Below are positions 2,814-57,207 of a stretch of 64,000 bases of DNA, piece after piece; position 1 is the first letter of the stretch, and every line of letters starts with the position of its first letter. This DNA is from Eukaryota sp. GEM-RC1 (taxonomy: Eukaryota), in contig JAUFOQ010000017.1 of the NCBI GenBank assembly GCA_040285855.1, forward strand, positions 372,001 to 436,000, read 5' to 3'. The translations under genes were made by a program, and so were the position numbers. The notes under the pieces are model-generated. The model worked only from the letters and a program-made list of their open reading frames with translations. It had not been told where the DNA came from and made no database searches.

Positions 2814-3823
2814 AAAAAGGGATGAATAAATGGATTGTGCATTCATCGATAGTGACTGAGAGAAAAGTTCTAATCAAATATTTTGTTTTTATTTGGGTTT
2901 TATTTTGTTTTAATTATATTTATTTCACATTTATTTTTGGCACTTTTCGATGTTCAAATTATTTTAAATTATCTTATGAGAGAGCTTGTCTCAAAGTACC
3001 CATCTCCTCTGGTTAATTTTCAACTACCGTCATAATGCATTCGAAGCAATAAAGGACCGTAAGAAGTAGAAGTTGTCATACATTTAATGATCTAGAACAC
3101 AGTTCTATTTTCCAAAATCTGAAATCAGAAGTCCTACAGCTTTCTTTTTACAATGTTCACAAAGTTCTGAAGTAATGGAGTTACTGATGAACCTAGAATA
3201 CGATTGAAGTTTTCAAACCCATTCTTTTGAGAGAAGAAATAATCCAATTATCATCGTTGAACCGCTATCACTGTTGCATGCGCAGAAGTCCGTCGTCAGT
3301 GTATCTAAAGTTCCACAAAATCTAAGGAAATTGATAGATCACTACAGCTCAAAAGTGGAGTAATTTTTGTAAAACAACAGTGTTCGAGCATGCTAAACTC
3401 GATGTGTTGTTCAATGACGTCGTACTCACATACAATGAAGTTTAATTGAATCATGTTGTATTAGCATGATAACGGCAACAGAAAAGATATAATTCTACTG
3501 ATCACATGTTTTTTTGAACGACTGATCAAAGTTTGAATAAATGAAAATGAAATTTGTCGTCTTACTTGAAGTAATAAGTTGCTTCGAATTTTATCTGAGA
3601 TAAAAGAAAAACAGTATTGTTGATCATTTGATAAATCTTAATTGTTACTACAGTTGTTTGTTTCGAATCATTTTAATGTTGACACTTCTGCATCTGCTAT
3701 TGTTGGGATTGTCATGGAAACTACAAAAGTAGACTTCCTTACCGTCCAGGAACCTTCACTTGATCTTCTCAGATGTTGTTGTGTAATCCTTAGAGATTGT
3801 TAGTCTGAAGGAAGAAGTGCCAC

Positions 3824-6800
3824 ATGACAATTTTTGAGCTGATGACAAATATAGTGGATCTTTCTCTCATCTCAACAATGATCCACTTGAATTGTTCGAT
3901 CTGCGCTTCAACCTTTGACAAAGCTTCCACGCTGCCCTGTGGACATTCCTTTTGTCTCACGTGTATCACTGAATGGCTAGAAGGACACCAAAATTGTCCT
4001 ATTTGTCGTAAACAAGCCTCTATCAATGATGTTGCCCCTAGTTATGTTCTCTGTGAAGCTGTCGATGCCTTTGTTAAGAATCCCGCCGCAGTACCCGAGA
4101 TCCCGTCTGAAGACCTCAGTTTCACTATCAACAATGAATTGGGTAGTGGAATCAGCGGAACTGTTTATCTCTGTGAATGGGCTGACACCAATGTTGCTTT
4201 AAAGCTCGTCCGTAAAGATGATCAGAATGAAGCAAGACTCTTGCAAGAAGTCTCCTACATGGTCTCTCTGTCTCATCCTTTTGTCCTTAGTGTGTTTGGT
4301 ATAACCAGACTTCCGAAGCACATTGGTATCTTGATGGAACTTGGTTCTGGACATCTACAAGTCCCAACATCTCTTTCTCCCACCACCCTTGCTCAAGCTA
4401 TTGATCTATGTACCGCTGTAAAGTACTTGCATTCCAAGGAAATTGTACACCATGACATAAAGCCCCAAAATGTCATTATAGTAAATTCGCAGGTCAAACT
4501 TGCCGATTTTGGTTCTTCACGTACCATGTACAACTATACGTCCACGCTCCAAGTAACTCCGAAGTACACACCTCCGGAAGCGTTTAAGAAAATCTATGGT
4601 CCTGCTTTCGACGTTTATAGTCTGGGAATATTGTTTTATGAAATGTTTACCAACATACTTGCATTTGAGGATATGCTTGTTTTTGAACTAGTTATGGCTA
4701 AACAAAATGAACATTTATTGAGCTTTCCTGATGGTTTTCCTGTGCCAATTTCAACCTTAATTAACAAATGTCTTTCAGTTAATCCTAGTGAAAGACCTTC
4801 TATTAATGATGTACTAAAAGTGTTGAAAGAAATTCAAGGAACCATTGAAGTCTTTGAGTTGAACAATTTTCTAGCAAATGATCTTCAATTAGAGAAAAGT
4901 AGTGATGAATTAGCTTTTGAAGGTTACCAAGAAGCTGCAGAACGAGGTGATGCTGAAGCCATGGTTAATCTGGGTAACTGTTTTCTTAATGGTATTGGGA
5001 TATACAAGGACGAGAGACAAGCCGTTTACTGGTTCTTGGAAGCTGATTCTAAGGGAAACTCTAACGCAAGAACACACTTGGGCAAATCTATTCATTGGTG
5101 TCAAAAACACGCAGAATTAGGTGATGAACTTGCAATGAAAGCCCTTGGCGATTGTTACAACAAAGGACAAGCAATCGAAAAAGACCAATCAAAAGCTGTG
5201 TATTGGTATCAAAAGGCTGCTGAGTTGGGCAAATCTATCGCCATGTATAACCTTGCTCGTTGTTACAAAAATGGAGAAGGAATCGAAAAAGACCAATCAA
5301 CAGCTGTGTACTGGTACCAAAAAGCTGCAGATTTGTGTGACTCTGATGCCATGTTCTCGCTTGGTTATTGTTACAATTGTGGACAAGGAGTCGAAAAAGA
5401 CCAATCAAAAGCTGTGTATTGGTATCAAAAGGCTGCTGAGTTGGGCAAATCTGTCGCCATGTATAACCTTGCTCGTTGTTACAAAAATGGAGAAGGAATC
5501 GAAAAAGACCAATCAAAAGCTGTGTATTGGTACCAAAAAGCTGCAGATTTGGGCCACTCTGGTGCAATGCATAATCTTGGTGTTTGTTACGCAAACGGAC
5601 AAGGAATCAAAAAGTACCAATCAAAAGCCGTGTCCTGGTATCAAAAAGCGGCAAATTTGGGTCACTCTGGTGCCATGTTTACTCTTGGTGATTGTTACTT
5701 TCATGGAGAAGGAATCGAAGAAGACCAATCAAAAGCCGTGTACTGGTATCAAAAGGCGGCAGATTTGGGTGACTCTGGTGCGATGTTTAATCTCGGTGTT
5801 AGTTACTTTCATGGAGAAGGAATCGAAGAAGACCAATCAAAAGCCGTGTACTGGTATCACAAGGCTGCAGATTTGGGTGACCCTGGTGCCGTGTTTAATC
5901 TTGGTGATTGTTGCTTTCATGGAGAAGGAATCGAAGAAGACCAATCAAAAGCCGTGTACTGGTATCAAAAGGCGGCAGATTTGGGTGACTCTGGTGCCAT
6001 GAATAGTCTTGGTAGTTGTTACTTTAATGGAGAAGGAATTGAAGAAGACCAATCAAAAGCCGTGTACTGGTATCAAAAGGCGGCAGATTTGGGTGACTCT
6101 GGTGCGATGTTTAATCTCGGTGTTAGTTACAAAAAGGAGAAGGAATCAAAAAGACCAATCAAAAGCCGTGTACTGGTATCAAAAGGCGGCAGATTTGGGT
6201 GACTCTGGTGCGATGTTTAATCTCGGTGATTGTTACTTTCATGGAGAAGGAATCAAAAAAGACCAATCAGAAGCCGTGTACTGGTATCAAAATGCGGCAG
6301 ATTTGGATGACTCTGATGCCATGAGTAGTCTTGCTAATTGTTACTTTAATGGAGAAGGAATCGAAGAAGACCAATCAAAAGCCGTGTACTGGTATCACAA
6401 GGCTGCAGATTTGGGTGACCCTGGTGCCGTGTTTAATCTTGGTGATTGTTACTTTCATGGAGAAGGAATCGAAGAAGACCAATCAAAAGCCGTGTACTGG
6501 TATCAAAAGGCGGCAGATTTGGGTGACTCTGGTGCCATGAATAGTCTTGGTAGTTGTTACTTTAATGGAGAAGGAATCGAAGAAGACCAATCAAAAGCCG
6601 TGTCCTGGTATCAAAAAGCGGCAGATTTGGGTCACTCTGGTGCCATGTTTACTCTTGGTGATTGTTACTTTCATGGAGAAGGAATCAAAAAAGACCAATC
6701 AAAAGCCGTGCACTGGTATCAAAATGCGGCAGATTTGGGTCACTCTGGTGCAATGCATAATCTTGGTGTTTGTTACGCAAACGGACAAGGAATCAAAAAA

Positions 6801-7007
6801 GACCAATCAAAAGCCGTGCACTGGTATCAAAATGCGGCAGATTTGGGTGACTCTGGTGCCATGAATAGTCTTGGTAGTTGTTACGCAAACGGACAAGGAA
6901 TCAAAAAAGACCGATCAAAAGCCATGTACTGGTATCAAAAAGCGGCAGATTTGGGTGACTCAAGGGCACAAAGGCACCAAAGGCGACTAGAACTACTATT
7001 ATGGTGA
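3824..7007 (+). CDS. RING finger - protein kinase - SEL1-repeat protein, frameshifted near 6130-6152
   Basis: C3HC4 RING (CSIC...CGHSFCLTC...CPIC); kinase motifs GSGISG, VALK, HHDIKPQN, DFG, YTPPE; 36-aa SEL1 repeats. ORFs 3824-6202 and 6009-7007 join if two single bases are restored at A-runs relative to the repeat consensus. Confidence 0.88.
5110..6975 (+). repeat. 108-bp coding tandem repeat (about 17 SEL1 units)
   Basis: GACCAATCAAAAGCCGTGTACTGGTATCAAAAGGCGGCAGATTTGGG recurs every 108 nt with near-identical units. Confidence 0.92.
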
Positions 7008-7812: not shown

Positions 7813-8100
7813 CTAGAGCTTAACAGATGATTGAAGATCTCTACTTCTTGAAGAATATCTACATGACATCATTCTACCACTTTTTGTAAGTGAATCTCCA
7901 TTGTTCTTTCTATTCGTTGCTGATTTCTTTTGTCTTTCACCACGTAAGTTGTTGAAGAAACACATTGGTCGATCCTTACCAACATGATAACCCTCAACAA
8001 ACTTCAGCAGATTCAAACAGCTATTGAAGTCTCCATTCCAGAGTTTATGACATGTATTTCAATGCACTAAACCTCAACTCTTGACCTCATCTGTCTCTTT
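7813..8100 (-). pseudogene. Relic of a second, divergent Fanzor C-terminus
   Basis: Minus frame reads KS*GLVH*NTCHKLWNGDFNSCLNLLKFVEGYHVGKDRP, aligning with LGLVKCSDAECGTYWNRDLNSAINI...GQGRP of the Fanzor at ~16980-17090; two TGA stops fall where W and C are expected. Confidence 0.6.
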
Positions 8101-9626
8101 CCGTCACCTCAGCTTCGTCCAACTCACTCAGGTTAAAGAGTCGATCGAATTTCTTATCAACTCTTTCCTTCTGCTTCGAGAAGTTTGGTTCCTTGGCTTT
8201 GAGAAAGGTTTTCCTTCTTTTTTCATGTTCGTTATGTTGTTCTCAAAACATACTTGAACTGATGAGATGTCGTAAACTGCATTAAATTTTGAGCAATTGG
8301 TTTTTTCGGAAGCAAATTCCGAGAGTTCCTTCAGACTCCAGTAAGCTGCCACTGGTTTATCAAAAATTTTGGGTGAATTTATAATACTAAAGAGCTTGAT
8401 CGCTCAAGAAATTGTACTGTTTTAGTTTGCTTCATCTTTAGGTTTACACCGGTTCTTTTTTTTACTGAAACACATAGGAAAAGAAAGAGATCAGAAGGGG
8501 TTTATACAACAGTGCTTTGGAAGAAATTTGGATATTATTTCGATCCAGATCCTAATCCCTTCATATCCAAAGAATTTTGCCAATCTTGATGCCGTTGACT
8601 TTTGATGTTCTTCTAGCCCTCAGAACTATCAACGATCTTCGGGCTGAAGACTCATGCTTCCGAAGACACCCATGTTCGTGTAAAAAAGTGGTATCAAGTA
8701 TTTTATACTACCCCCCTACTCGCCGGAAAGTAATCCCATCGAGTGTTTCTTTGGAATGCTGTGCAGAAGGATCAAAAATTTGGCTCACCAATTTCCCTCA
8801 GCGTCCTCACCTGATTTAATTAAAACGGGTTTAGAGAGCTTGAGAAGTAAACAATGTCGCTCACTTTTTAACAAAACTGGTTGGAGACAGAAATGTATGT
8901 ATCGTTCTTACTTAACTGACGAACATCTTTCCCATAGTATAGATCTTGATCGAGGTACAGTAAGTGCCGTTGAGATTTTTGATCTCCATCAAACTCAGTC
9001 ATTGATGATCTATATGAAGCTTAATCTCTTCCACTGTTACTGATGAAACATTTATTTCAGAATGTTTCAAGGTTATCTGAAAAGTGGGAATTTACTACAT
9101 ACATTGTCCATTGCACTGAGGTTACGACTAGCTCCTGGTGACAAAACCGAAGGTCCAGGAGGAGAAACATGAAGGCTGCGAATGAAATTAGTCAAGTCAG
9201 CATTCAGCTGGAAAGTCAGACTGTGTCCAAAATCTTGCACCTGTTGCTCAAATTGTACAAGCCGTTGATTCATAAATTAGACAATTTGGTCCAAGGATGC
9301 CATTTCAGTCTCCGCTATATGTTAAGATGGGACCTTTTGTGCGTGTTCAAGGGTAACAGCAGGGATCTCGGAAGCATCATCTATATCCCCGGCTTCATAC
9401 ATAAGTTTCAACTTCATCCACTGATGTGTGGGAAGAGCTACTTCGGAATTTTGCAGCCTTTAAATCTAGGATACTGGTGCTGCGGCGGTTAGTCGCCTTG
9501 ATAGCTTGCACAAAGGACTGGTGAACTTGTTGAGGGTTATCTCAGCAAATAAAATCTTGTCAATCTGATAATCGATTTATTGAAGACATATCACTCTCGT
9601 GATTTTTTTTAACTATTAGTTATACC

Positions 9627-10705
9627 CATACTTGTTGATCACACTCGTTTTGTCAGTGTGATCACAATCACAAATTATGATCACAAATACTGTTTATTGG
9701 GAAAAATAAAGTTGATAATACTGTATTATATTATTTATACATATCGAAATAACATATCCATACAGCTTTCTTTTGCAAACACGATCTATTTCACTGTCCT
9801 GAGACCAATCTACATCAATGTGCTCCTCCATATCTGAATCTTCGATCACAAAAGCTTCTCCAATATCTTCTTTATCTTCCTCATCCTCATCGTCAACTGT
9901 GATGTCGTCAAAAACATCTCTCAAATCAACATTTGCTACCACATCCATTGTATCTGCCTGTTGTTCTTCTTCTGCCAACAACACTAAAGACCCACATTTC
10001 CACATCCAAAAGAACATCCCCCACTCTAGATTTGGTCTCAAGTATTTAGTTGAATACCGAGATTCAAATTTTTGGGTTCTTGTTTTAGAAGAGGAGTATT
10101 GAAATGTATAATCGTCATGTCATCCAAATGATCGTTGGTCAATTTCAACCTTCTTTTGGACACCTGGAAGTCAAATGAAGACCATTTCCTTTCTGTTGTA
10201 GATGCTGAACCAGTATGGCCCGTAATTCTTTGAGCTAATTGACTCAACTGTGGATAAAGCTGTTTACCAACAGAGTACCACCATTGATGGACAGCCAAAT
10301 TAATGATTTCAGAAGTAGTAAGTTTTGTGGTAAAATCTATTGTATGATATATTATTGTTTGATATCTTATAGCACCATTAACATTGAAAGTCTTCCTTAC
10401 CTGATGTGTTTTCACGAACTTTCACAAGCTGGTAGAGCGGATTGTCCTTATTACAATCGGATTGGAGAAAAGGAAGTGATGGCATTGTGGGGAAATGGTA
10501 AATGTAGTTTTCGAGCACCACATTAGACTCTAATCTTGTGCTCTATACTGTAGAGTGTTGTTGAACAATTAAAACTGGTCTAGGTTTATCACATACACGT
10601 ATTATATTAATAACTTCACTTCAGTATGGATCACATTTGAATCACAAGTGATGTGATCACAAAAAAGGCCAGTGTGATCACATGTGTTTGTGATCCACAA
10701 GTATG
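9627..10705 (-). mobile_element. Non-autonomous hAT transposon (1079 bp)
   Basis: TIRs CATACTTGT(T/G)GATCACA at both ends; perfect 8-bp TSD GTTATACC (9619-9626 and 10706-10713); subterminal GTGATCAC repeats. Confidence 0.92.
10038..10415 (-). pseudogene. hAT transposase C-terminal dimerisation domain remnant
   Basis: WW...YPQLSQLAQRI...SASTTERKWSSF...RRLKLTNDHLDDM; the catalytic core is deleted. Confidence 0.8.
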
Positions 10706-12195: not shown

Positions 12196-12520
12196 ACATG
12201 AACAATGTATTTCAGATCTCCGAGTGGATCAGCACACTTTTTTTGTTTGTAGTATGAATAAGACTAAATACTAATGACTAAATACTGAAACTAAACATAC
12301 CAAAAAAATACAAACACAAATACAAAATACAAAATACACAGAATACATGTATTCTGTATTACCCATCTATGATTATAACTCCTAATGACTGCTTGATTCT
12401 TGGTTAGCTATTGATTTAAATATCTATACTTAAATATGTCCCGCTTTACTTTTCTATTCTTTTGTCATCATTGTTCCCTCGTTCCGTTCAAATATTAAAG
12501 ATGTTAATCCGAAAATAGTA

Positions 12521-13147
12521 CACCGATTGTTTCAAATAGTCTCACTGAGACTAATACAGTACGTGATTTTCATGTGTCACATATCGGAATTAGTCTCACT
12601 GAGACTAATTTTTAGTGAGAGTAATTGCAAATAGTCTCACTGAGACTAATTATTTCGCAATTGTATTAGTCTCACTAAATATTTATAAACATGACATCAT
12701 TTTTCTTTGAAATACTTCCCCTAATTCAAGTTACCAATCTCTTTAACAAATACACTTTGCTCTTGATCCATCTGTGTTTCTTCACGATTTCTTGAAGACA
12801 AAAGATCAACTTTTATTCATGCCAAACTCCAGTATCATCTCCAAGCGGATCTTTGAAGATGCTCTGAGCCTTAAAGCTACGAATGAAGCCATAAAAAATG
12901 ATTTCGATTGGTGAGTGGGGAATCATATGGTTAAGTACAGTTTTAAGTTGATCTTATCAGTATAATAGTTCTTCTAATTGTAAAAACTCAATCAATCATT
13001 TGTATTTTTATCGCATCTTTCTCGTTAAAAACAATAACAGTTGTATTTGGGAGGTCAAAATTGAAACTCTGATATCGGAATTAGTCTCACTGAGACTATT
13101 TTCTAGTGACACTAATTTGTTAGTGAGACTAATTGAAACAATCGGTG
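12521..13147. mobile_element. TA-flanked MITE (Tc1/mariner-like), 627 bp
   Basis: 26-bp TIRs CACCGATTGTTTCAA(A/T)TAGTCTCACT; TA on both flanks; internal palindrome TAGTCTCACTGAGACTA at 12537, 12591, 12632 and 13082. Confidence 0.88.
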
Positions 13148-13780
13148 TAGTTTCAGTATGCAATTTTTCAGCATCGATTCTTCTTTCCAAAATTCTTGAA
13201 AATAGTGAACGGAGTACTTCAATAGTACAACAGCCAACAGCCAACAGCAACATTTCCATAGGATTTGAAGGGAATAATCGAGTCACAGAAGGACAACGTG
13301 TCGTTTTTGACTTATCTTATCTTGTTGCAATAAATTTTGCGTTGTTGAGTCTTCAAAATCAATATATTGTTGAGAGGGATCTCACAATAAGTGAACAAAT
13401 ATATACTACAGTAGTATTTAGTGCTGGAATACTTTATGCATGTTACGCTCAGTCAATACGTTGTGTGTTTTTCCAGTGTAGTGTGTGTACTGCTGATTGA
13501 AGTTACACATGGTGAGTATAAAGTTTGTGTATCTGACAGTAGTGGAATTATTAATGTTAATTAAAAGTAGTACTAATATTTTACAACAATAATAGTAGAA
13601 TTTGAATCTTTTGCTTTTTGATTGTACTAGTGATACTATATGTGTGTTACGAATTGTAGTACACATATAACTTAATTTTACATTCATTTATGCTACAGTA
13701 ATACTAAGTTTTCAAAATTTTCAACCAAACATCACATAAATCACTACCCAAAGGTATAAAATAACTACCAAATAACAAAC

Positions 13781-13785
13781 AAAAA
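13781..13785 (-). terminator. Pol III oligo-T terminator of the 5S gene
   Basis: T5 directly after the 5S 3' end on the minus strand. Confidence 0.7.
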
Positions 13786-14278
13786 GAATGCAGCACTCAG
13801 TGTTCGCTTGTGGTCTCCCACCAAAGAAGCAAAATATTGCTTTCGATGTGACTATTGATGGTGGAAATGGCCATCATCCGATGGATTCTTTCTATTATAG
13901 CTACGCCAAAAAAATCAAAAAGTACAAGGTGTTAAAAGACTTGAAATTAATTAATGATTTAATTCCTCTTGTATTTACCGTACATGGTGGAATTTTCAAA
14001 GAAACTTTTCAAACTTTGAAGAAATTTGGTTATACCCAGATTCTTGATGAAGTTTATTGTAAAATTGTTAAAGGAAGTGTTCGTTGCAAGAATGCGTATT
14101 TGAATATATGTAATTCTGTTAGTGAAAAAATGTATTATTAGTTGTTTAGGTATTTCCATTAATTTTTCCATGTATTTAATTCTTTTATTATAATAAAAAC
14201 TACTAACTAAGCCTTTGGCCACTTAACTTCGGAATTCGGAATGGGATCCGGTGCTATGGACCAAGTATGGCCGCATTC
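13786..14278 (-). rRNA. 5S rRNA: 5S rRNA gene interrupted by an insertion (5' part 14278-14200, 3' part 13825-13786)
   Basis: Joined minus strand: GAATGCGGCCATACTTGGTCCATAGCACCGGATCCCATTCCGAATTCCGAAGTTAAGTGGCCAAAGGCTTAGTTAGTAG + TTTGGTGGGAGACCACAAGCGAACACTGAGTGCTGCATTC = 119 nt; helix I closes (GAAUGCGGC/GCUGCAUUC); followed by TTTTT. Confidence 0.93.
13826..14199 (+). mobile_element. 5'-truncated RLE-type non-LTR retroelement inserted antisense in 5S rDNA
   Basis: Open frame NIAFDVTID...KKIKKY...LIPLVFTVHGG to TAG 14141, a short 3' UTR, then an AATAAAAA tail abutting the 5S sequence. Confidence 0.72.
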
Positions 14279-15647: not shown

Positions 15648-15690
15648 GGATTGCGTTTACAAAAATTGTTGTAAACGCAATCCGAACTAG
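15648..15690 (+). other. Perfect 15-bp stem-loop followed by CTAG-T (Helitron-like terminus candidate)
   Basis: GGATTGCGTTTACAA-aaattg-TTGTAAACGCAATCC-gaa-CTAG-T. Confidence 0.45.
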
Positions 15691-16439: not shown

Positions 16440-16690
16440 AAGTGTCCATGTATCGTCTACCGTCGACATAGTGAGTGCCTCAAAAAGTAGGGGGAGTATA
16501 TTACGAACCCAACGTGTTTCACACGTGTTAAGGTAAATCTGTTTCTTCAACTTGATATCTCTGTGGTTCTCAACTCAAATGGATATTTCCAAAGTACACA
16601 ACTTTGTTAATTTTCATTTTGATTAGAGTATCGAAACCACAGACACTCAGTGAGCTAAGCCCACTTCGCTGTGTACCGTTAAAAGTACAC
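16440..16690 (-). ncRNA. Candidate Fanzor omegaRNA scaffold (ends unknown)
   Basis: Consecutive hairpins right after the stop codon (16671-16690, 16649-16665, 16626-16648, 16590-16606, 16512-16526); two need G-U pairs available only on the minus strand; possible pseudoknot 16635-16642 with 16561-16568. Confidence 0.5.
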
Positions 16691-19600
16691 TAAAGTTCTT
16701 TACGAGAGACCTTCGTCTGCTGGACTGACATTACGCTTCTTCTTTTAGGCGAACTCATTTCTTTTGGTGGATTCTTGCATGACCTTTTGTTGTGACCTTC
16801 TTGGCCACAATTTCCACATGTTTTCTTCTTTCCTGTTGAAGTTTTCTTCTTTCGTGTTGAAGTTTTCTTCTTTTTAGTCGCAGTCGTCTTCTTCTTCTTC
16901 TGGTCTCTCGCCAAAGTATCCTTACCACTCTCGAGATCTGTTGTTTGAGTTTTAGATCTCTCGAGAGCGGATGGCCTACCTTGACCATTGATCGTTGCTT
17001 CAATGATGGAATAGATATTAATGGCAGAATTTAGGTCTCTATTCCAATAAGTACCACACTCAGCATCTGAGCACTTTACCAGTCCCAAGGGTGTGGATTT
17101 AGCTTCTTCTTCCAATGACTTCTGCTTCACCTCCCACTCTGCTTCCAAAATCCCGTTGGTTTAGAGGATCTTGTTTGTTTTTGAGCAAAATTTCTCTTCT
17201 TAACTTTCTCTTCTTCCTTCTTAGCTGTCTCTTACCTTTGGGACCAAGAACCTTTAGTTCTGAAACATTTTCACATTCTACGAAAGTTGATTTTTCCTTA
17301 GCACATTTGGAACAACACTTGCTTGTTCTGTATTCATCAACAAGAAATATTTGGTATCCATATCTTCTTAACATTTTACGGATTTCCATTCCTCTGACAG
17401 TAGAGGTTTTGCCCTTTCTTGTTTTACCTTTTGAGCTCCAATCCCCATAGCCAATGACAACGTCTTCTGGAGGTCCATATGTTAAATTGAAGCGTTCCAG
17501 CACGTTTTTTCCGAACGTTGGTTATTAGAATAAATTTGGAATTTCCTCTTTCTAAACCAGTCATCTTCGTAAAAAGAACTCAAATATACGTTATATCTTT
17601 CAGCTTCTTTAATATATGTTTCAAATGTGTCGCTGAAACACGACTTTCTTTCCCCATCGGATACAGCACTGGAGAATTGGTTAACGACATCTCTTCCTGT
17701 TACAAGAATATTATTAGGATGGAGAACCAAAAAATCTTTAAGTTGTCTTTCAGTGACAGTTTCGTCTGGTGATTCAATAGAAAATTCTTTCAGTTTTCTA
17801 TTTTCAGATTTACGATATTTTTTAGATTTCCTATCATAAGCTCTTTCTCCAGCTGTGTAATTAAACTTCTTCCATTTGTGCTTAGCCTTTTTCTTTGATT
17901 TTACATCATTATTCGAATTTTTCCAATCTTGTAATTGTTTCTTTCTTTTCTTAATTCCTCCTCTTTTCTTACTTCTGATTTCTGAGGGTAATCGTTTTTT
18001 GAATGGATTTTTTCAGAAATATCTTCTTCTTTAAGCTCATCGACTGTCTTTTCTGAAACACAATACATTAAATCATATTCATTTGGATCAATACCTACAA
18101 TTCTTTTTTCCTTCAATTGTAATTCTTGAATATTGTCATTTGATAAAGAGTGAATGTATCTTTCCGAAGTTCCGAGAGATTTAGCAGTAAAATCTTTGAA
18201 AGTATTTCCATCTTCATCAACCAAATCTTTTCTCATTAAAACCAAACAAGAAGAAATTCCATCTGTCAGAATTGAAGAATATCTAAAGACAAATGATTTT
18301 GTTGATGCCACAGCTTTGTCAGTAAGGACCTGATCAAAGACCTTTTTCCTTATTTCATCTGCTTTTTTGCCTCGTATATGGACAAATTTTTGATTAATCC
18401 AATCCGTGTCCAAACGAATATGTTGAGGAATCAATGTTTTCGTCATTGGAAAAGGATTGTTTACACTGATTAGTTTTCCATCAACCAAACACAAAGATTG
18501 TATTGTTCGGTTGATGTATAGAGCATGAGAAATTAACTGCATCGGCTTTGCCTTCTGTAAATAGTAAATATTCTTTTTTGAAAACATTGGAAACAATGAA
18601 AATTTCAAATACGCAAAAAAACTCAATGTTAATTCTTCAAGTGGATAAGGGAAGATCTTGTGATTATTAATGGGAATGTCATCAAAATTTCCATTGATAA
18701 TCGAATCTCTGACTGAATTCAATTTCGAAATCAATTCTTTCTTATCAACTTGATCATTTATCTGTTCAAGTCTTACTTTCTTTCTTGTTACCAGATTAAA
18801 GAATCTGAATACATAATCATGAAAATTTTTGACCATATTGTTGGCATAATTTGTAGAAATTTGTTTGGCAGTGTAATGAAATATGGGAGACATTGACGTA
18901 GAATCAGGAAATGAAATTTGATTTGTTCCAATTTCATCAGACAACTGTTGTAGAAGTGGAGAAAAGTTGTTCAAGTAGTGAAATGCAATTTTTTCTTTTT
19001 CATTTATTTCTAGTCATGAAGATTTTTGGAGGTCATCAAGCACTTTTTGAGCCTCTGCTCTTGATATTTCTAAATCTGACTGAATTGAAGAACCAGTTGA
19101 TTTCTTCACATACATCCGTCTCAACACTTGTTTGATTGAAGCTTGGCTAAGAAATTTTGTAAAATCTGGTAAGACCACTGAAAAATTTTTGAATGTAAAT
19201 GAATCAAAATCATGTTCGGACATTAACTCCATTTCACGAAGTTCTTTCTCAAACAAATCATGTTCGTACATTAAGTCTCGTTCATTTGATTCCAAACGTT
19301 CACGTGTTTCAGACTCAGAAATATGGAGATTTTCGTACATTAAGTCTTGTTCGTTTGATACTGACAAATCAGAAGGTTGTAGTGTAAACGAATCAAAATC
19401 GTGTTCGTACATTAAGTCTCGTTCATTTGATTCCAAACGTTGTCTTTCAAACTCACAAATAAGCAGATGTTTCAAAAAATTAGAACCCCTTACTGTTGCT
19501 CTTTGATTTCGGATAACACAGTCTTTAATTAAGACAATATTATCTTGATCTTTAATAACTTTCTCCAATCCCTTTTTCACCACTTTAATTGGATGGCGCT
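16690..19600 (-). CDS. Fanzor1-type (eukaryotic TnpB-derived) RNA-guided nuclease portion
   Basis: RuvC-I IVGIDPN (D 18087-18089); FNYT..ER..D.K.KKY; GYGDWS; RuvC-II VDEYRTSKCCSKC (E 17333-17335); CSDAEC; RuvC-III WNRDLNSAINI (D 17035-17037); also ILTDGISSC and NYANN motifs. Confidence 0.9.
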
Positions 19601-22600
19601 CTAGAACATGTTGAGTTTCTTCATCAAAGAAATATTCATGTAATTCAGTTAGACAGTTAATTCGTTGAAGTAAATCATCAACCAGAGTAATTACTTTTAC
19701 GTTATCAGTCCACAATTTGAAGGTTTGCTTGTTGTGTGCGAGTAAATTAAACTCTTTCTCTATTTCCTTGTTAACGGTTATGTCTGGTACTTTTCGAAAT
19801 TCTGTGAAGTACGTAGTTAATTCTAATGACGACAAAATTAAATTGGGTACATGTTTCCGAAACAATTTTGAACAAACATTTTCCAAACTTCTACCACCTT
19901 TGAACACATAAGTAGACTTTGTCACATTTGCCAAGTCTAGAGAAACAAAGGGTCCAAAATTGCAAAGCTTACACCATCTATGAAACCAGTTGGGTACGTA
20001 GGGTCTGTATGGATTATCTAAATGAAAATTGGTCTGAATCTTAAACAGTTCACATCGTTTAATCAAAAAGGAAACAAAAGTTCATCAGTGTTATAACCAA
20101 TCAACAATCTGGGTTTTGTTTGGCATAAAACTTGGATAAGTTCCCCAATCATGGCTTCTTCTGAAGCACAAACAATTATTTCGACATTTTCAAATGTATC
20201 GTTTATGTTCTTTTTACTAAAAATAACAGTTGAAGTGAAATTAGCATAGATAAATTTTAGACTGATAAAGATTATTTTGTCTTCTTTATCCAAAGGATTT
20301 GCAAACAGTTCTGCTCTCGATGCTTCAACTTCTTCTTTGATTTTAGGAATATCAGCATCCTCTGGTTCCTCAGAGTCATCTTCAATATCATCAGAGTCGA
20401 CACTTTTTTTAGGCAATACTTTTTTAGTTGATTTGAGAATTCTTGGATTGAGTCGTTTTGCATCAGTAATCATGGTTTTAAAATCAATTAAACAAAATGT
20501 TGGGATTTCTTCTGTTTCTGTTAATTCTGATAGATTCGATTTCTTAAATGGAGGAGTAATTCCACTTTTTTGAGGTTTATGTAGTTCTGTTTTAGATGAG
20601 GAGACTAAGGTGTCTACAGAAACAACTTCTTTTACAGGTTCAGTGTGTAGACTTTCTTCCATGATAAGTATATCCTTTTGCATTGACGGTGGATATAAAG
20701 AAATAGATGCTTGTAATTTTGGTGGTAGGTCTGTTAACCTAATAGACGATTCTTTGGACATTAGCTGTTCTTCTTCTTCCTCCTCTTCTTCTTCTTCTTC
20801 CTCTTCTTCTTCTTCTTCCTCTGGTGGATTAAGTGATTCAAGATACGAGTAGATTTCGTTTCGAACAGCAAGAGCATCAATTTCCATATTAAGCAACAAC
20901 GATTCAGCATGAGACAGGCTTGGAAGTTCACTTAGATTGTTTAAAAATTGGTGAATATACTCTATAACATAGATTCCACAATCATTGGGCGTCTGCTTTC
21001 GCATAACAGGAAAAACAATTGGTTCGAATTCAAGAATGCTAAGATCTGATGCTACTATAGAAAGGACATTTGTCAGCAGAGAAGTCTTGATAATATTTCC
21101 ATCCTGTGCAAAATCACGAGTATCGTAATATGGGTCAATAAACATCCAGTTCCTGATTTGACAATCAATGATAATCAAACCCCAATGAATACCAGATTGT
21201 GCTGGTTCTGTAAATCCATCATTCAACGGAGCAATAAGAAATCTGTTGCCTCGATTTAAACATTCGAGAGTTTTATCAAGTAGAAAAGATGACAGATTGT
21301 GACTAGTGATGTAATACTTCATCACTGAAGGGGGGATAAAAGAAGTCCAATCGTAACCATAAATTTCAAATAATTTCTTACAATATAGTCGTATAACTTC
21401 ATCATCGACCCAGTTATTCGGTTCCACAGAGGTCAAAGTCTCATCAGAAACAACTTTTTTGGGTTTAGTCTCTGATCGACTCAAACGGTTCTGAATCTCT
21501 TGTCGAACTTCTACAGTGTTTATGTTGGCTATTTCAAGCAATTTGGATTCCAAATACAGCCCAGGGATTGTTCGTAATTGTGACAAAAGTTCATTAAATT
21601 TCTCTATATATTTTAGGACATAAATTCCACCGTCGTTTAAAGTTTGCTTGGTTGCAACAGGAATTGGTTTGAGATTATAAGTTCCAAAAGTTGTTTGAAC
21701 TATATTATATATCTGTTTCAAAGACGAAGATTCTATTGAAGAATCTGAATCACTCTTTGGATCAATAAATATACCTTCCAAACGCACACAATCGACAATA
21801 ACTAGCCCCCAGTGAGTTCCATCATTGGCCGGTTCTGTCATGGAATCATTTAGTGGGATTATGAGATAGTTGTATCCTTTTTCCTTAGTGACATTGACTT
21901 TGTCATTGATAAAAACATCTAACGATAAATCAGGAAAAAGATTGTATCCTTTTAAAAGAGCAGGTTGAATAAAAAGATCATCGAAATCAACACTAGAGGC
22001 TTGTGGTTTGAAATATGTTTGAAATATGGTTCTAGAAAACTCAACAAAGACTTCATCATCTACCAAACGATCATGTTGCAAAGAATCTAAAGCTTCTTGA
22101 GAAACTGGCCCTGGATTGGATTCCACGTCACCATCCATGGTGAGATCTTCTTTGAATGGGGGACGGGAGGAGAAAACTATACGTAATATGAGACACAAAG
22201 CAGAAATAGATGAAGAAACAACACAAAGGATCATCTGAGGAACATTACGAGACGAAGTCGAGGGTATGATGGAAAGCACATGAACACAATTCACATGGGC
22301 TGTTTCACTAGCGGAAACGAAAATAATTCTCCAACACCTCATTATACTACCTTGTTCTTGAGGAGCGTGTGAGAGTGAAGTAGTAAGGCGGCAGCATGCG
22401 GAAGAGTAACTCCAACATCTCATTATACTACCTTGTTCTTGAGGAGCGTGTGAGAGTGAAGTAGTAAGGCGGCAGCATGCGGAAGAGTAACTCCAACATC
22501 TCATTATACTACCTTGTTCTTGAGGAGCGTGTGAGAGTGAAGTAGTAAGGCGGCAGCATGCGGAAGAGTAACTCCAACATCTCATTATACTACCTTGTTC

Positions 22601-22633
22601 TTGAGGAGCGTGTGAGAGAATTGATGTCAACAT
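16690..22633 (-). CDS. Reconstructed polyprotein: leader - 2A - 2x Ulp1/C48 protease - degenerate PolB exonuclease - Fanzor1 - CCHC knuckle
   Basis: Six track ORFs are collinear. Joins need single-base homopolymer fixes at ~20067, ~17940, ~17507 and ~17152, plus one in-frame TGA at 19014-19016; first in-frame ATG at 22633. Confidence 0.7.
22106..22147 (-). other. 2A-like ribosome StopGo peptide
   Basis: DLTMDGDVESNPGP fits the D(V/I)ExNPG-P consensus exactly. Confidence 0.88.
22329..22618. repeat. 81-bp tandem repeat, about 3.6 near-identical copies, in the polyprotein leader
   Basis: Units start at 22329, 22410, 22491 and 22572; encode SHAPQEQGSIMRCWSYSSACCRLTTSL on the minus strand. Confidence 0.95.
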
Positions 22634-23384
22634 TGAAAGTAAATGATTGTTTGACAAAGATTTCTTCCATCTATAGTAGGATATCTTACAAGTCAGTCAC
22701 ATTTCATATAATTCCGAACGTAAGAGCTACTAGCTATCTCCTACTTACTAGCTACTAGCTATTCACCCATCCCTCCTGACGACTAAGAAATTATGTCCAC
22801 TCCAGATTTTCTGTTTCATACAAGTGTCTCATATAGATTCAGGGTTACTCTAGTGTTGACAATTAATCTACTGTACATAAATCTCTCTGCATAAAACTTC
22901 ATCTCTCATAAGGTGTAAAAGTAATAACATGTATATTATCTTTTAAAAGCAAACTAGTATGCCTATGTAATTTGTTTGTTGATGTTTTCTATAGTATGTT
23001 TTAAAAGTATATGTGTTAAGTTATTTTATATTGTAATTCAACGTATCTATATTCAGATTAAAGCAAAGAGAAGTTATTAATTGATGACAAATGATTTATT
23101 CCTACTGCTAGTAACTACATGTACACACCCATTGTTTATCCATAACATCATATATAGACTTTATGATCGCATCAATCAATCCAATCAATCTACAAAAGTT
23201 CTGATTTCATCAGGTACATAAATATCATCGCGAAAGTACTCAATATACTTTTTCGACAGATTCTTAATGGAAAAATGATCGTCGTCATGTGCCAAAAGAA
23301 TCTTCAACTTGTAAACTTTTTCATGCAGAGTTCGAAGTAGTAGCATGTCAGAGGGAATGTCATATACGATGTACATGAGATTGT

Positions 23385-23900
23385 TTGGGTGGACAAGTGA
23401 TGTACACTCAAAACAAGCCTGAACTTGGACTAGTTAATGGTTCAAAAGGAGTTATTGTTAATTTTTCAGATTCATATATTGATATTCGGTTCAACGCTGA
23501 AGCAGTACCAAAAAGAATCAGTCAGTCAAGGTTTGCTATCGAACACTTGAACGAAATCGGAAGACCTGTTCAAGTGGCGAAAAGAATTCAGTTTCCGCTA
23601 AGACCTTGCTGGGCGATAACAGTGCATCGATCCCAAGGTTTAACAATTGACGGGATCGAAGTTGCTATCCAGTTTTGGGAATATGCCCAACTTTATGTGA
23701 CCTTAAGTAGGGTTAGGTCTTGGAGGAGTTTAAAGATTTTAAGCATTGGAAGAAGTTATCCAGTACCAAATTTGGAATTATATCAATGGTATTATTCAAC
23801 TTTTCATCCTGTTAAGCCATCCACTATTGATTTGTATGTTTTGGGAAATGTATGTTTTGGGAAATCAACATTGTCTTCAACGAGATTTCAATCATTTTAA
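23385..23900 (+). pseudogene. PIF1-family helicase C-terminal fragment (Helitron-like)
   Basis: QVMYTQN...GLVNGSKG, RIQFPLRPCWAITVHRSQGLT, AQLYVTLSRVRS; no Walker A/B half and no ATG start. Confidence 0.8.
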
Positions 23901-24143
23901 TTCATTGTTTGCAAACTTTTGTGCAGCATCAAGTGTACCAATGATGGATGATGTTGTTGTTCCTGAAATTGTTCATTGTGTTGATGAAGTTGTTGATGAA
24001 GTTATTGTTGATAATGTTGATGAAAAAATTATTGAAAATAATGATAATCAAATTATTGACTTGGAAAAAATCGTTTAAATCATTTCGAAAAATCAAATTT
24101 ATTTGAAACAGAAGCTCTACTATCAGGATCCGATTCTGGTAAT

Positions 24144-25090
24144 GAATCTGATAGTGATACAATTTCAACAAGTTTGGATGATTTTGTTGTAAATGATGAA
24201 CTTGAAGAAGATGAAACTAATATTCCTCCCAAATTTATTAATTGTGACTCAATTTTTAACAAAAATTCCCCAGAGATTTGTGTGAAAAAGTCTAAACTTC
24301 CTCAATTACCACGAGGCAACATTACTCTACCATCGCTTCCCCGTTTGAAGAAAACCCCCTTTACCAACGAAGAATTTATTATTACAAAAGAATATTAATG
24401 CTGGTGTAGAAAGAAAAAAGTTCCCAAGTATTTCCTCATAGTGAAGATGAAAAGCGATTTTGTCTCAAGGAAGTTCAAACTGAAAGCTTTGAAAATGAAA
24501 AATGTGATTCCATATGTGAATATCAACAAACTGACAATGTGACTTATGAAACAATATCATTGTCTCCTATTTTGGAGTATGAACGTGTTGCTACTTCAAA
24601 ACAATTCAGAGTGGACTTAACTATTGGAATTCAGTCAATTGTCGATAATGTACTAGATTGTATTGGATCTGAATCTGCATCAAGTATGGAAGTGAAAACA
24701 ATAAGGAACTGTTACATTACCGATGTGATTAATAAGGATAATGTTGATGCACGTTATTGTAGTGATGTGCTTGTGGAATTGTTTCATGTGTTGAAAGAGT
24801 ATTTGAAAAATGATGAAAAGACTGGCATGTGTGTTTTATTAGAATTATATATAATTTTGAAAAGATTGGACAATATAGACAATTTTGATAGTTTCATCTT
24901 GTATTACACATCTTGTATTACGAATGTTGTATTACACATCTTGTATTACACATATTGTAAAACACACCTTGTATTACACATCTTGTATTACACATATTGT
25001 GAAACACATCTTGTATTACGAATGTTGTAAAACACATCTTGTATATTACACATCTTTTAGTTGTCACATGAATTACAAATGTTGTAATAT
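24144..25090 (+). repeat. Dispersed repeat, copy 1 (downstream of the PIF1 fragment) ending in a ~14-bp minisatellite
   Basis: Near-identical to the reverse complement of ~63240-64000; ACACATCTTGTATT units at ~24893-25060. Confidence 0.88.
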
Positions 25091-26020
25091 ATGTGACAAC
25101 TAAAAGACAATACATGGTGACAATAGACTTGCATAAGTGACTTAACTTTATGAACAAAAGAAAAACATAATCAATCAAGATTTCCAAGTCGACATATGCT
25201 TTCAGCTTGTGACGGTCAGAATGAGAAGATGAAAGATTATCAGAAGAAGGAGAATATGCACTGTTTATCCAGCGAGAGATCGTACTTTGCAACTCCCAAA
25301 AATAAAGGAACTAACATCAGTTAAGATATTTAACATGATGAAGTAATATTCCAGACAATGAAGAAAGAAAGATGGATCTTCCCCATTCAGAGAAAGGACC
25401 AAACAGCCCTCACTTTGGTGTCTTCCGAAGCGTGGACAGACATGCTCGTTAAGTCGAGTCTTGAGTCCCAGAGTATCTCAAAAGTGTATCCCATAAGTAA
25501 AAAGAGTTTGTGGGAATTGGGATAATTAATGCATTGTACTGCAGTAGCACTACCATAAATTGAACTGTATTTGCAGTTTATTTAGCGCAACAGAACCTTG
25601 CAAGTTCACAGACTAAATTCAGTCACTTAGAACAGAGCATAATTGTAACTGTGATGCACAACACTATTTTAGAGATGCACTCAAAGCTTCACAGCTTTTT
25701 TTAACAGGAGAGCCTACGGAGCGGCAGCGACGTTTAATGGGAGGCATATTGCTCTGAAAGTGTTATATAATGTTAGATAGTGGAAGAAGAATCCACTGCA
25801 AAACCTCTTCTTGTTTGTTATTTTTTAAATCAAAATAAAAGCACCAACAAATGTTACAATTTATTATTGGACTTTCGGCGTTAAATTTGGCCTAGCACGG
25901 CTTAGGCCGGCCAAAAAAGTTTTTGAAATCTGTAAGCCGGCTTAGGCCGGGCCGTAAGGGTATCACAGTGTGGATAGTGCAAATTCATTGAAAACGATAT
26001 CTGCTATTCTAGTATCTTAA

Positions 26021-47514: not shown

Positions 47515-47946
47515 CTAACAGACACCAACTAAAGTATCTATACTATGATCATTCTGTCCACCACCGAACAACTTACCTAAAATTGAATTAAAATATCTGT
47601 GCATTGAACGAAACAGCATAAACGTTAACCTACTCAACCAAAAATTTTCATTGAAAACTTTACCATACTCAGAACACAATTTACCAAAGGAAGTTAAAAA
47701 ACCTTGTGCAGCTGGTCCAATGTTACCGTATATCGACATCGCAAAAGGTTGAAACACAATAGAATTGTACCTGTCAACACTCAATTGGTTAATTAAGTGA
47801 CAGTACTTTGTATTTTTTCCCTTTTCAACAACTTCAAGAGCAGTAAAATCATCATCAAAAATTTTGGAACTTGATCTTGAATTACAAGGATCAACAGTCG
47901 TGAAATCCATGATAATTTCATGACAAGGTAACCAAGGACCAATCAA
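47515..47946 (-). pseudogene. RLE endonuclease end of a 5'-truncated non-LTR retroelement
   Basis: IIMDFTTVDPC...EKGKNTKY...FQPFAMSIYGNIGPAAQGFL. Confidence 0.7.
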
Positions 47947-48423
47947 AAATCATGTTTACTAACAATGTATACTATTTGTATTACAGTAACACCTACTAGT
48001 AGAAGCGGCTTTTATCAAAATACTCACTAATTACCTCAAAGTTTTCAGTTTCCGTATCTTTGTAATGGATTTTAAGAGACAGTATCAATAGTGCATTGGC
48101 AACTGAAATCACCACACCTTTTGAAAAGTGGACAACACAATTCTGTTTGTTTAAACCAAGCTAACATCATAAAACGCTTTCTATTTCATTTGCAATATTT
48201 AAGTTCAAGTAAAGAAGTGACAAAATTGATATTCTTAAAGGACGATTAAAAGTGCATAGCACAAGTACGTGTAGTTTGAGTGTGTAACTGTAATCTAAAT
48301 TTTTGATTTAGAACGATAATTTCATTGCAAATTATCATCTGTTCCAAATGAAGAAATTCACAGTACACGTACAGTATATGAGTGGCAAAGTAATACAAAT
48401 TTATATAAAGGTGAAGTACATCA

Positions 48424-50622: not shown

Positions 50623-51336
50623 TAAATCATTGTACATTTTAAAACAATGAACAATTTGTAATTGTGATGCTAATTGTACATGTACTCGTACTGTCAATTA
50701 CCGAATAATTAGCAATTGGTTCTAAAACATAGCCTAATAATACATGGCTCTAACTTAGAGCACAGGTTCTATTCAGTTGTTGAAAGTAATAGAAAAGACT
50801 ATGTACAGCAATGAGTCAGGTGGGACTTTGATTTAGCTGAATACAGCTAAAAATCGATAGTTAAATGTGTGTGGCATCGTCAATCAATGAACCGAATAGA
50901 AGTTTCAAGGGATAAACAGTTTAAGAAGAAAGTGTCTACTATAAACAGTTAGATAAGAACAGAATGTTCCTAATTTCTAACATGAAACATGTAGAAGAAG
51001 ATAAACTTCATTTCCACGATGAGGAAAAGATCAAAAACGGCGAAATCACAGCGTAATGTGAAACTTGAAGATTTCTACCGAGATGATCAAAGATTTGTAG
51101 TCTTGCCATACTATTCCAAAAAAGATCAATTCTTAAAAGACAAACCGACAGAAGACTGTACCATGAATTGGGGTTTAAGCTAAATACTTCGGAAAACTTA
51201 ATTCGGTACACAAAAGGGAACCTTCCTACAAAAATGTGAATTTGTAATTTGTAAAAACAAACTAATAATACTAAGATCAAATCCAACACGACTTCATACC
51301 TATCCGGCAAAAGATTACGTTTTTCAACATTAATCT

Positions 51337-51640
51337 TCACACCAAACTTGTACAATTTCTCAACCAGTCGAGAGAAACAGAGAGGCATAATCTGATGTAT
51401 GGAAAACACAATACGGACTTTCCACTCATCCATTCTAAACTTACGCTTCTCTGCTTTACAAAACTCTTCGAAATCCTGGAAAAATTGATCACCAGCAGGA
51501 CTAATCGACCCAAAAAGAGAAACAGCAAAAGGTAGAAACACAAATTTGGAATATGATTTTCGATTGAATTCTTCTAATTTAGAGTCATACTTGGAATGCT
51601 TGAGCTTTTCAGCAGCTGTTAACGGATTACAAGAAGAATT
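51337..51640 (-). pseudogene. RLE endonuclease relic of a non-LTR retroelement
   Basis: PLTAAEKLKHSKY...FLPFAVSLFGSISPAGDQFF. Confidence 0.65.
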
Positions 51641-51852
51641 TAATAAATAAGCTAAAAAAATTAAGTGAAACACATGTAGTATGTTGCGAATATTAATTTA
51701 ATAATACAGATTGTTACAATAATTAATTCAACTGAGTCATAAAAAATTAAGATTTCCAGTTCTATTATTGGATATTGATGAGTAGAAACGATTTTTTGAA
51801 GAATTCATCTCTCTTCTTGTCTTTCTAGGTAATTGCTTATCGTTTCTTTTTG

Positions 51853-54838: not shown

Positions 54839-55116
54839 ACAAAAGATACAAAAGGAGAATTAAAAACAAAAAAAGAATGAAATGACAACCACTTGTCTAT
54901 GATGTTTATAAGGAAACTGTTGGAGTAAGGTGTTGATAAGTCAAGCCGTTCGTTCAGATTTCTTGAATGGCTATGTTTTATCACACAGCATCTACTCAAA
55001 CATAATATGTCGCTAATCAGATACAATGAAACACGCAGGAATTGGCTTGAAATTTGAGAATGGAAAGATTGTGAGCTTCCTAAATTTCCAGTTAATAACC
55101 CTCACAGTTTCTAACC

Positions 55117-57207
55117 ATGACACTTCACCGCACATTAGGATTTTATGATGTCTTCGCCATCTGTACGGGCACGATGATCAGTTCCGGTATCTTTGTACTA
55201 CCTGCTGTAGCGTTCAGAATGACCGGACCATCAATGATTGCTGCCTATTTAGTTGCGGCATTGTTTATGATTCCCTCAGCACTTGTGAAAGCAGAGCTGG
55301 CCACTAGCATGCCTATCTCCGGACTGACCTTCTACTCCGTGTTTCGTTCTCTCGGACCCTATTTTGGATGTGTTTGTGGTTTTGCCTCTTGGCTTTCCAT
55401 CACCTTTAAGGTTTGTTTACGTCCTCCTTCGTTAACTCTAGACTGCTTTTGCTGCTATGGGATTGGGTGGTATTTATACCGCTTTTAATCCCAATGCCAG
55501 TGACCAGGCGATTTCGGCTGTTGCTATAGGCTTCATGACGATTTTAGTTCTGATCAACGTGTTCACAGTGAAAGGAACCAAGGCCTTACAGAAGCTCTTT
55601 GTTACAGGCCTGTTAATCGTATTGTCCATCTTTGGTGTAGTTGGCCTAAAAGAACTTCCTGATAATGGAGCCAATTTCACTCCCTTTTTGGCTAAAGGAT
55701 GGCCTGCTTTCTTTACTACGGTTGGTACGGTGTCTGTGACATTTGGTGGGTTAACAAAGGTAGTTGCAGTGTCGTATGTTCTGAAACACGACTTATTTTA
55801 GTGAAGAAATTAAAAATCCTCGAAAAAATATACCCAAGCCACTCTTTCTTAGCTTTTTCTCCATGTTACTGCTGTATGTGCTGCTCTTGGTCGTGGTCAT
55901 CACTTCTCTCTCTGCTGAAGAACTTACTTCCTCCTATACTCCGATTGCTGACGCGGCAAAGAATGCGTTTGGTAAATCGGTTTCTATCTTCATCAATTTC
56001 TCGTCTATTATTGCTTACTTTTGTGCTTGTAACTCTGGCCTTCTTTCTGCTGCTCGCAGTCCGGTTGCAATGTCCAGAGACAACATCTTACCAAAATTCT
56101 TTGGATACACATCTGCCAAGTTCAAAACACCAATAACAGGATTGTTGGCTACGTATTTGATTATTGTTGCCACTCTTTGGGGACTTAATGTCGAAACTGT
56201 AGCGAAAATCGCAAGTTCACAATTTTTTATTAAGCAATGTCCTTGTCTTGATCGCCGGAATTATTTTCAGATACTCTGGATTTGCCGTTTATCAGCCCAG
56301 TATTAAAACGTTTGCTTTTCCTTACTTAAACGTGGCTGGAATCGTTGTTAGCCTGTTTCTTTTAATTGATATGGGTTCTGTGAGTTACTTATCAATTTCT
56401 GGTATGCTTGCAATCCTAGTAGTGTGGCACTTTGCATACGTTAGAAGAAGAACTGGCGATGCTGAATCTATCCTGGCCTTTCTCAATTCTCATCCATCGT
56501 CCACTTCTCGTTCTGTTGTAGAGGACGAACTTCTTGCCATCAAGACATCAGATCTAGAGCCTGATCATTTCGATGAAATAGCTGAAAGATCACTGGTCAT
56601 TGATTCCACTGCAACAAGTTCACGAGAGGCTTTCAACGAATGTGCGAATGCTATTGAGGAACGATTTAATCTGGATTCAGTCAAAATTTGCAATATTCTT
56701 GTGGAATCTGAGTTTAAGGGAGGCTTTGACATTGCTCCAAACGTTGCAATATTCAATGTTGCAATCAGTAACAAAGATGATGCTCTTGAGTTGCTCATCT
56801 TTAGATCAAAGGCAGGTGTTGAATTCTATGATGGTTCAGTTTGCAAATTGATTTACGTCTTCATTAGTTCAAGAGAGTTTTCAAATAACTTTCTTCAGTG
56901 CTTAAACAGCTTGTGCAAATCTGTTGCCAGGAAGGACTTTCTTCAACAAGCTTTGGTAGTACGAAGTAAACGAAATCTACAAGAGTTATTCTTCGTATGC
57001 GCTAGAAAAAGACATTATTACGCTGGTACAAATGATGTCATTTTAGAAGCATCTCCAGTTAGACGTAACTCCATTATAGAGACTTATTCGAGAAGCAATT
57101 CTGTTTCATCCTTCAAGCAGATGAATTCAGGAGGTGATCGCAAACTTGGTGACCGTGAACTCCCATCGCTGGTTGAGGATGCTGATGAATTTGGAAATCA
57201 TGTGTAA
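55117..57207 (+). CDS. APC amino acid permease fused to a PTS EIIA-like domain, copy 1 (introns 55411-55441, 55774-55801; extra T at ~56226)
   Basis: LHRTLG...GTMISSGIFVLP, AELATSMP, SEEIKNPRKNIP after splicing, AMSRDNILP; splicing restores the frame. Confidence 0.88.

Follow-up and report, generated by a model that had tools for sequence, protein, structure and literature searches.

A Fanzor1 gene, broken in the copy at hand, that very probably once joined a 2A motif, an exonuclease fold and an RNA-guided-type nuclease in one long reading frame

Described Fanzors are mostly stand-alone nucleases, and their role in hosts is still open. Most Fanzor1 proteins (Fz1) are 600-700 amino acids long according to the available text of one study (PMC11423790), and OMEGA nucleases have been proposed to act as homing endonucleases in the available text of another (PMC13565253). 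Here we describe a Fanzor1 gene in a 64,000-nucleotide stretch (the window) of the genome of Eukaryota sp. GEM-RC1 (GenBank assembly GCA_040285855.1, contig JAUFOQ010000017.1, positions 372,001 to 436,000, forward strand); all positions given below are those of the window. On the minus strand, between 22633 and 16690, six collinear open reading frames (ORFs) encode, in this order, a leader, a 2A motif, two C48 protease domains, a family-B polymerase (PolB) 3'-5' exonuclease domain, Fanzor1 and a zinc knuckle. We read the locus, with a probability of about 0.6, as a single long gene that is broken in this copy and likely belongs to a mobile element without a transposase; its intact members are predicted to cut the empty site with an omegaRNA, trim the end and be copied in. 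The Fanzor1 architecture is real and apparently undescribed.

The six ORFs, which the original prediction had reported at this place, are separated by four frameshifts (J1, J3, J4 and J5) and one in-frame TGA (19016-19014). Joined with an X for every break, they amount to 1,981 codons when counted from the ATG at 22633, in line with the predicted figure of about 1,980, or 1,848 codons from the ATG at 22234. J1 and J4 are each one base short, and homology pins their positions to a T5 run (20069-20065) and an A6 run (17510-17505), respectively, while J5 has one base too many, in either a G3 or a T4 run (17154-17147). J3 is also one base short, and any site within the 110-nucleotide (nt) overlap of ORF3 and ORF4 (17903-18012) fits. 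Three relatives (P0002, P0004 and P0013) read this K-rich stretch in the ORF4 frame, which assigns J3 to the A6 runs at 18013/18000 instead of to the predicted site near 17940; the number and kinds of the breaks were as predicted. A fourth relative, P0007 (50% identical), reads the stretch in the ORF3 frame and rejoins the ORF4 frame later, which may be a recurrent run error or a shared shift. Composition-corrected BLAST over the K-rich stretch retains just a 12-residue match.

One ancestral long ORF very likely joined these domains. The C48 domains and the first half of the exonuclease domain, which J1 splits in two, both lie within ORF1, and the C-terminal exonuclease half and the Fanzor N-terminus both lie within ORF2. 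Furthermore, the relative P0009 is a single chain of 1,473 amino acids with the 2A motif, PF03104 and TNB but without C48 (Pfam). Its alignment with the window is collinear, starts at the linker and runs on until RuvC ends, unbroken at all five junctions; the fusion is therefore not an artefact of the window. Because of this unbroken chain and the sharing of domains within ORF1 and ORF2, we assign the 2A motif, the exonuclease fold and Fanzor to one frame, as had been proposed. Together, the window and P0009 make two sequences with 2A, exonuclease and Fanzor1 in one chain, about 34% alike.

Relatives were collected by an exhaustive HMMER search with ORF3, which gave 149 matches, P0009 among them. 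For a midpoint-rooted FastTree phylogeny of the WED-RuvC region, P0003 and P0149 were excluded and 13 short sequences removed, so that 135 of 148 remained; in this tree, the window and P0009 fall within a clade of 10 of the 135 sequences with a support of 0.95. A sister, P0001, shares 96% identity with the window over 205 residues and reads Arg at the window's TGA. P0003 matches the window at 100% identity in two pieces that it joins over a distance of ~950 nt, and it is probably a gene model for the window locus in which two parts of RuvC and every N-terminal domain are missing; since gene models of this type omit the N-terminal domains, such fusions are easily missed in surveys. At least 15 other partial relatives share 26-59% identity, and we therefore regard them as a diversified repeat family. 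Word-index protein searches found no match, which is weak evidence, no related locus was found in metagenome contigs, and an Atlas search with ORF2 and P0009 gave no usable match.

The best PDB matches of the nuclease were SpuFz1, GtFz1 and PpFz1, whereas the Fanzor2 entry reached only E 0.14. In a Fanzor profile built from 75 full-length matches, positions 5-671 of 681 were covered, in order, by ORF2 residues 162-214 followed by ORFs 3-6, and 251 of 743 aligned residues are identical between the window and the P0009 Fanzor. The Fanzor part starts at ~19595, inside ORF2, is broken by the TGA, J3, J4 and J5, and holds an acidic insert of ~90 residues in REC. As originally predicted, it has kept the RuvC acidic residues (D 18089, E 17335, D 17037) and the C4 finger cysteines (17317-17303 and 17073-17056). 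The available text of PMC3627910 defines Fanzor1 by a D-X(125,275)-[TS][TS]-XX-C4 finger-X(5,50)-RD motif. The same pattern runs across the broken ORFs, with D at read-through residue 1382, TS at 1638 and five residues from the last Cys to RD. In Fanzor1, the RuvC-II Glu is placed six residues ahead of the zinc finger (PMC13565253, available text), and the window's Glu and first finger Cys (17317) fit this spacing. By full-length similarity, the nuclease is a Fanzor1 rather than a Fanzor2 or TnpB. It should be noted that its Lys-rich tail and CCHC knuckle are absent from P0009, and that a single-sequence model of ORF2 was not usable (predicted local distance difference test, pLDDT, 37).

Two segments of the coding strand are strongly structured. 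The upstream hairpins stand where ordinary Fanzor1 proteins end and are a possible omegaRNA start, and the three stems lie directly 3' of the stop, with no match in Rfam. We regard both segments as candidate parts of an omegaRNA.

Coordinates of the features of the Fanzor1 locus. Both RNA segments were picked after a sliding scan in 100-nt windows.
Feature	Position	Strand	Basis or remark
ORF1	20063-22696	-	
ORF2	19014-20081	-	
ORF3	17901-19013	-	
ORF4	17482-18012	-	
ORF5	17099-17521	-	
ORF6	16690-17160	-	
81-nt tandem repeat, 3.6 copies, 99% alike	22329..22618	-	in frame with ORF1
Hydrophobic 43-codon leader ending in class-A-type 2A/StopGo	22106..22234	-	GDVExNPGP at 22135-22106
C48 domain a	21470..22105	-	PF02902 E 0.02; His, Asp, Gln present
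C48 domain b	20834..21451	-	PF02902 E 1.4e-6, above cut-off
Acidic low-complexity linker with poly-Glu	20501..20833	-	partly conserved in P0009
Family-B polymerase 3'-5' exonuclease domain	19596..20500	-	PF03104 E 6.9e-8, above cut-off
Fanzor1 (WED/REC/RuvC/TNB)	16954..19595	-	PDB matches and Fanzor profile
Strong RNA hairpins in coding strand	16930..17007	-	z -4.3, 0/200 shuffles as stable
Lys-rich tail with CCHC zinc knuckle (16818-16777)	16690..16953	-	stop 16692-16690
Candidate omegaRNA scaffold, three stems directly 3' of stop	16540..16690	-	z -4.0, 0/200 shuffles

At the other end of the gene, the predicted 2A was borne out: the motif matches the (G/H)D(I/V)ExNPGP core of 2A/StopGo sequences and holds the single NPGP in the six frames of the window, and P0009 carries the same motif close to its N-terminus. 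The last 16 residues of the window's 2A are identical (16/16) to those of a viral locus (L062), the viral loci having been pre-selected on the motif. The 2A stands only 43 codons past the ATG at 22234, and the start codon could be this ATG or that at 22633. The interval between the two is largely the 81-nt repeat (to ~22330), which is probably 5' untranslated or a recent expansion and shows no significant RNA structure (z 0.15). The skipping activity of 2A depends on upstream context (PMC3708506, available text), and the predicted skipping would release the leader only.

The C48 pair, known from the window copy alone, separates the 2A from the linker shared with P0009; in P0009, the 2A leads directly into this linker. 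Domain b has kept the His-Asp-Cys triad (Cys TGT, 20980-20978) and the oxyanion Gln. Domain a, which shares 37% identity with it, has Gly (GGT, 21631-21629) at the position of the catalytic Cys and looks catalytically dead, so that of the tandem Ulp1 proteases originally predicted, both folds but a single intact catalytic set were recovered. When the two domains were modelled together, with low confidence (pLDDT 40), the best PDB matches were NEDP1/SENP8, NopD, Ulp1 and SENP2.

In the window's exonuclease domain, all three catalytic acidic motifs, which we take to be ExoI (DxE), ExoII (NxxxFD) and ExoIII (YxxxD), are degenerate, and the domain looks catalytically dead; the predicted PolB exonuclease thus stands as a fold, with its catalytic motifs lost. 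The P0009 domain (PF03104 E 5e-13) has Pol delta as its best match and aligns with it through ExoII with the Asp kept, and DxE and YxxxD were recognised by reading its sequence. It looks active. Between the two exonucleases, 88 of 282 aligned residues are identical. The loss of the motifs is likely old in the window's subfamily because the change exceeds the 4% divergence from the sister P0001.

We consider the window copy to be probably dead or decaying. All four frameshifts are placeable in base runs, and host genes carry breaks of the same kind: a Sel1-repeat gene lacks a single nucleotide at two places near 6130-6150, and a permease paralog has a surplus T near 56225. Runs are also where fragments of sister copies stop, for example P0001 at the T7 run at 18621, while P0015 and P0020 end after KK where P0011 continues; all RuvC and zinc residues are retained. 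These observations speak for a gene that is intact and active in the organism, its five breaks being errors of long-read sequencing or polishing in a multi-copy sequence. However, we find this unlikely, since the TGA (Arg in the sister) and the Cys-to-Gly change in C48 domain a are substitutions, five breaks per 5.5 kb contrast with long unbroken host ORFs, and genuine slippage likewise prefers runs; two copies of a neighbouring repeat differ by three such indels in ~760 nt at 93% identity. Programmed recoding, in which a leaky UGA followed by CUAG and a -1 shift at U-CCU-UUU would ration a toxic nuclease, has in its favour two contexts that presumably resemble known recoding signals. It is nevertheless highly improbable, given the Arg of P0001 at the TGA, the unbroken P0009, the lack of a stimulatory structure downstream of J1 (z 0.71) and the three more shifts that it would require. 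Introns were also examined as a cause of the breaks and rejected. Host introns measure ~28-33 nt; none of 18-79 nt removes the TGA, the sole candidate at J1 would delete conserved exonuclease sequence, and those at J3-J5 either are rich in purines or would take out conserved residues. A sense reading of TGA was rejected because host genes terminate in TGA.

The origin of the chain and of its protease pair allows two further explanations. The locus might descend from an endogenous DNA virus or Polinton-like element whose polyprotein was cut by its own clan CE protease, as the window 2A is closely like viral 2As, C48 folds are known in giant viruses, and large DNA viruses carry Fanzor1 (PMC3627910, available text). 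We consider this improbable: the exonuclease comes without a polymerase domain, no virus-type Pfam match was present among 18 ORFs scanned around the locus, no related locus was found in the viral contigs of IMG/VR, and none of 62 viral loci with a similar 2A (0/62) matched outside the 2A. In addition, P0009 lacks the protease, and the chain has three Gly-Gly sites but none between domains, and therefore one multi-domain protein is expected rather than a processed polyprotein. The processed virus-like polyprotein of the original prediction was thus overstated, as the 2A would free the leader only and a viral relative was not found. Alternatively, the C48 pair may be a private insertion after the 2A in the window copy or a small subfamily, a cargo unimportant to Fanzor. 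The direct passage from 2A to linker in P0009 fits such an insertion, as does the common presence of C48 in transposons (Helitrons, PMC11417382; Cryptons, PMC3212892; available texts). It is doubtful, however, because the insertion stays in frame across ~420 codons, the likeness of only 37% between the domains points to an old duplication, and domain b retains its whole catalytic set.

Several points weigh against reading the locus as one long gene of a transposase-free mobile element. Single-base homopolymer indels in host genes mean that four of the five breaks could be read errors. The exonuclease fusion is known from two sequences, the other clade members being fragments, and P0009, known as a protein sequence, could be a gene model assembled by splicing. 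The first residue of P0015 is a Met placed where Fanzor begins, which is compatible with stand-alone members. C48 was found in none of the 23 relatives scanned with Pfam (of 149 matches), which also favours a private cargo. No terminal repeats or clear target duplication were found around the gene (no inverted match >10 nt; the best direct match of 13 nt, at 23183 and 16078, was equalled in 4/200 shuffles), and mobility and mobiliser are inferred. Finally, the window's own exonuclease cannot trim a tail.

With these reservations, the long-gene reading suggests how intact members might spread. StopGo would drop the short leader, leaving one multi-domain nuclease. Fanzor1 would then load the 3' RNA and cut ~16-21 bases from the target-adjacent motif (TAM), like SpuFz1, whose cuts fall behind base 16-17 of the non-target strand and behind base 20-21 of the target strand (PMC10432273, available text). 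Such a cut at the empty site would leave a 16-17-base 3' tail unmatched to the filled allele, whose removal would be needed before copying. A tethered Pol-delta-like exonuclease would suit this task; in yeast, Pol delta proofreading can take as many as 40 bases off an invading 3' end (PMC10868807, available text). In P0009-type members, the tethered exonuclease would thus remove the tail and allow gene conversion, a role that we assign to it tentatively. In the window's subfamily, the exonuclease would have become a dead scaffold, and the SENP/NEDP1-like protease pair, either newly acquired or retained, would act on ubiquitin-like marks close to the break and not on its own chain; the window copy itself would now be decaying. 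More speculatively, and with the odds against it, this protist Fanzor1 clade could be a self-contained RNA-guided homing machine that spreads without a transposase, combining a virus-derived StopGo leader, a captured Pol delta proofreading domain that trims the tail and, within a single subfamily, a ubiquitin-like-protein protease that clears marks of repair or silencing at the break.

The locus lies within ~18 kb of element debris between host genes, comprising DDE_3, hAT and PIF1 fragments, a second Fanzor relic and 5S rRNA; the host is a compact eukaryote, and its genes in the window encode reticulon, RRM, Memo, prenyltransferase and radical-SAM proteins. The second relic is a decayed Fanzor 3' fragment (7816-8300, minus strand; profile E 3e-6) beside a DDE_3 (Tc1/IS630-type) transposase fragment (8684-9040, plus strand). 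Upstream of the gene and divergent from it, a repeated element (23379-25107, plus strand) is composed of a 5'-truncated PIF1 helicase fragment (23379-23900, on the strand opposite the Fanzor gene), an unknown ORF and a 14-nt minisatellite. A second copy of its downstream part lies at 63088-64000 (minus strand), 93% identical over 917 nt, and a short protein-like ORF without a family match (23185-23433, minus strand) abuts the PIF1 fragment. This Helitron-like element holds a long hairpin (25053-25107), and a near-perfect 36-nt hairpin (15648-15683) is followed by CTAG and T (15648-15690, plus strand), a pattern that we take to be like a Helitron 3' end. A Helitron carrying the Fanzor would have a RepHel gene and hairpin ends around it; of the former only the PIF1 fragment was seen, and the two hairpins may or may not belong to the Fanzor element.

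The debris also includes a hAT dimerisation-domain fragment (10038-10421, minus strand), a cluster of short palindromic repeats (12519-13149) and a lone 5S rRNA gene (14171-14278, minus strand; Rfam 50.5 bits). Directly beside the latter, an ORF (13776-14141) without a matching Pfam hit, similar pieces of which occur at 47515-47949 and 51008-51697, presumably resembles the restriction-like endonuclease end of non-long-terminal-repeat (non-LTR) retrotransposons. The Sel1-repeat gene is a RING-kinase-Sel1 gene (3809-7007, plus strand; names from sequence reading) with ~17 repeats of 108 nt, and the permease-like genes are a tandem pair (55099-59479, plus strand), 73% alike, with 28-33-nt introns; the first gene of the pair carries the extra T.

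Full-text literature searches found no natural fusion of a Fanzor to an exonuclease, C48 or 2A, in agreement with the original remark that the architecture was not known to its author from the literature, although figures, bioRxiv supplements, Repbase and subscription journals could hold one. None appeared in the available texts of PMC3627910, PMC10530073, PMC10432273, PMC11423790, PMC10691335, bioRxiv 2023.08.09.552727 and a 2A survey (10.64898/2026.09.24.754024), nor in the available text supplements of PMC10530073 and PMC10432273. An end-processing exonuclease on a Fanzor predicts a role for the nuclease, that of steering break repair toward copying the element, and the locus places a 2A motif in the nuclease gene of a DNA element. 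The strongest object is the unbroken P0009 with its active-looking exonuclease; the window adds the protease pair but is broken.

Compared with known Fanzor1 proteins (SpuFz1, PDB 8gkh; GtFz1, 9cer; PpFz1, 9cf0; available texts of Bao and Jurka 2013, PMC3627910; Saito 2023, PMC10432273; Xu 2024, PMC11423790), the window has the same WED/REC/RuvC/TNB order, D/E/D residues, Glu-finger spacing, structured RNA after the stop and multi-copy setting. However, its nuclease is the tail of a chain of 1,470-1,980 amino acids behind a 2A, an exonuclease and, in the window only, two C48 domains, and no element ends were found. Non-LTR retrotransposons share the N-terminal 2A, the single long mobile-element ORF and the release of a short leader (Odon 2013, PMC3708506, available text), whereas the chain described here has neither reverse transcriptase nor APE, and its cargo is, judged by sequence, an RNA-guided-type nuclease. 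The C48/Ulp1 domains of Helitrons and Cryptons (PMC11417382, PMC3212892, available texts) and NEDP1/SENP8 (PDB 2bkq) have the same clan CE His-Asp-Cys fold, in Helitrons and Cryptons likewise as mobile-element cargo; the window differs in having a tandem pair, one dead, in frame with Fanzor. Further parallels are the Pol delta proofreading domain (PDB 3iay) and engineered exonuclease fusions to Cas9, Cas12f and Fanzor (PMC13370227, PMC12337685, PMC12923547, available texts), the common trait being a 3'-5' exonuclease fold tethered to a programmable nuclease. Here the fusion is natural and without a polymerase domain, active-looking in P0009 and degenerate in the window. If our reading is true, it would be a natural version of the fusions built by genome engineers, and the P0009-type chain would be a ready-made template for nuclease-exonuclease editors.

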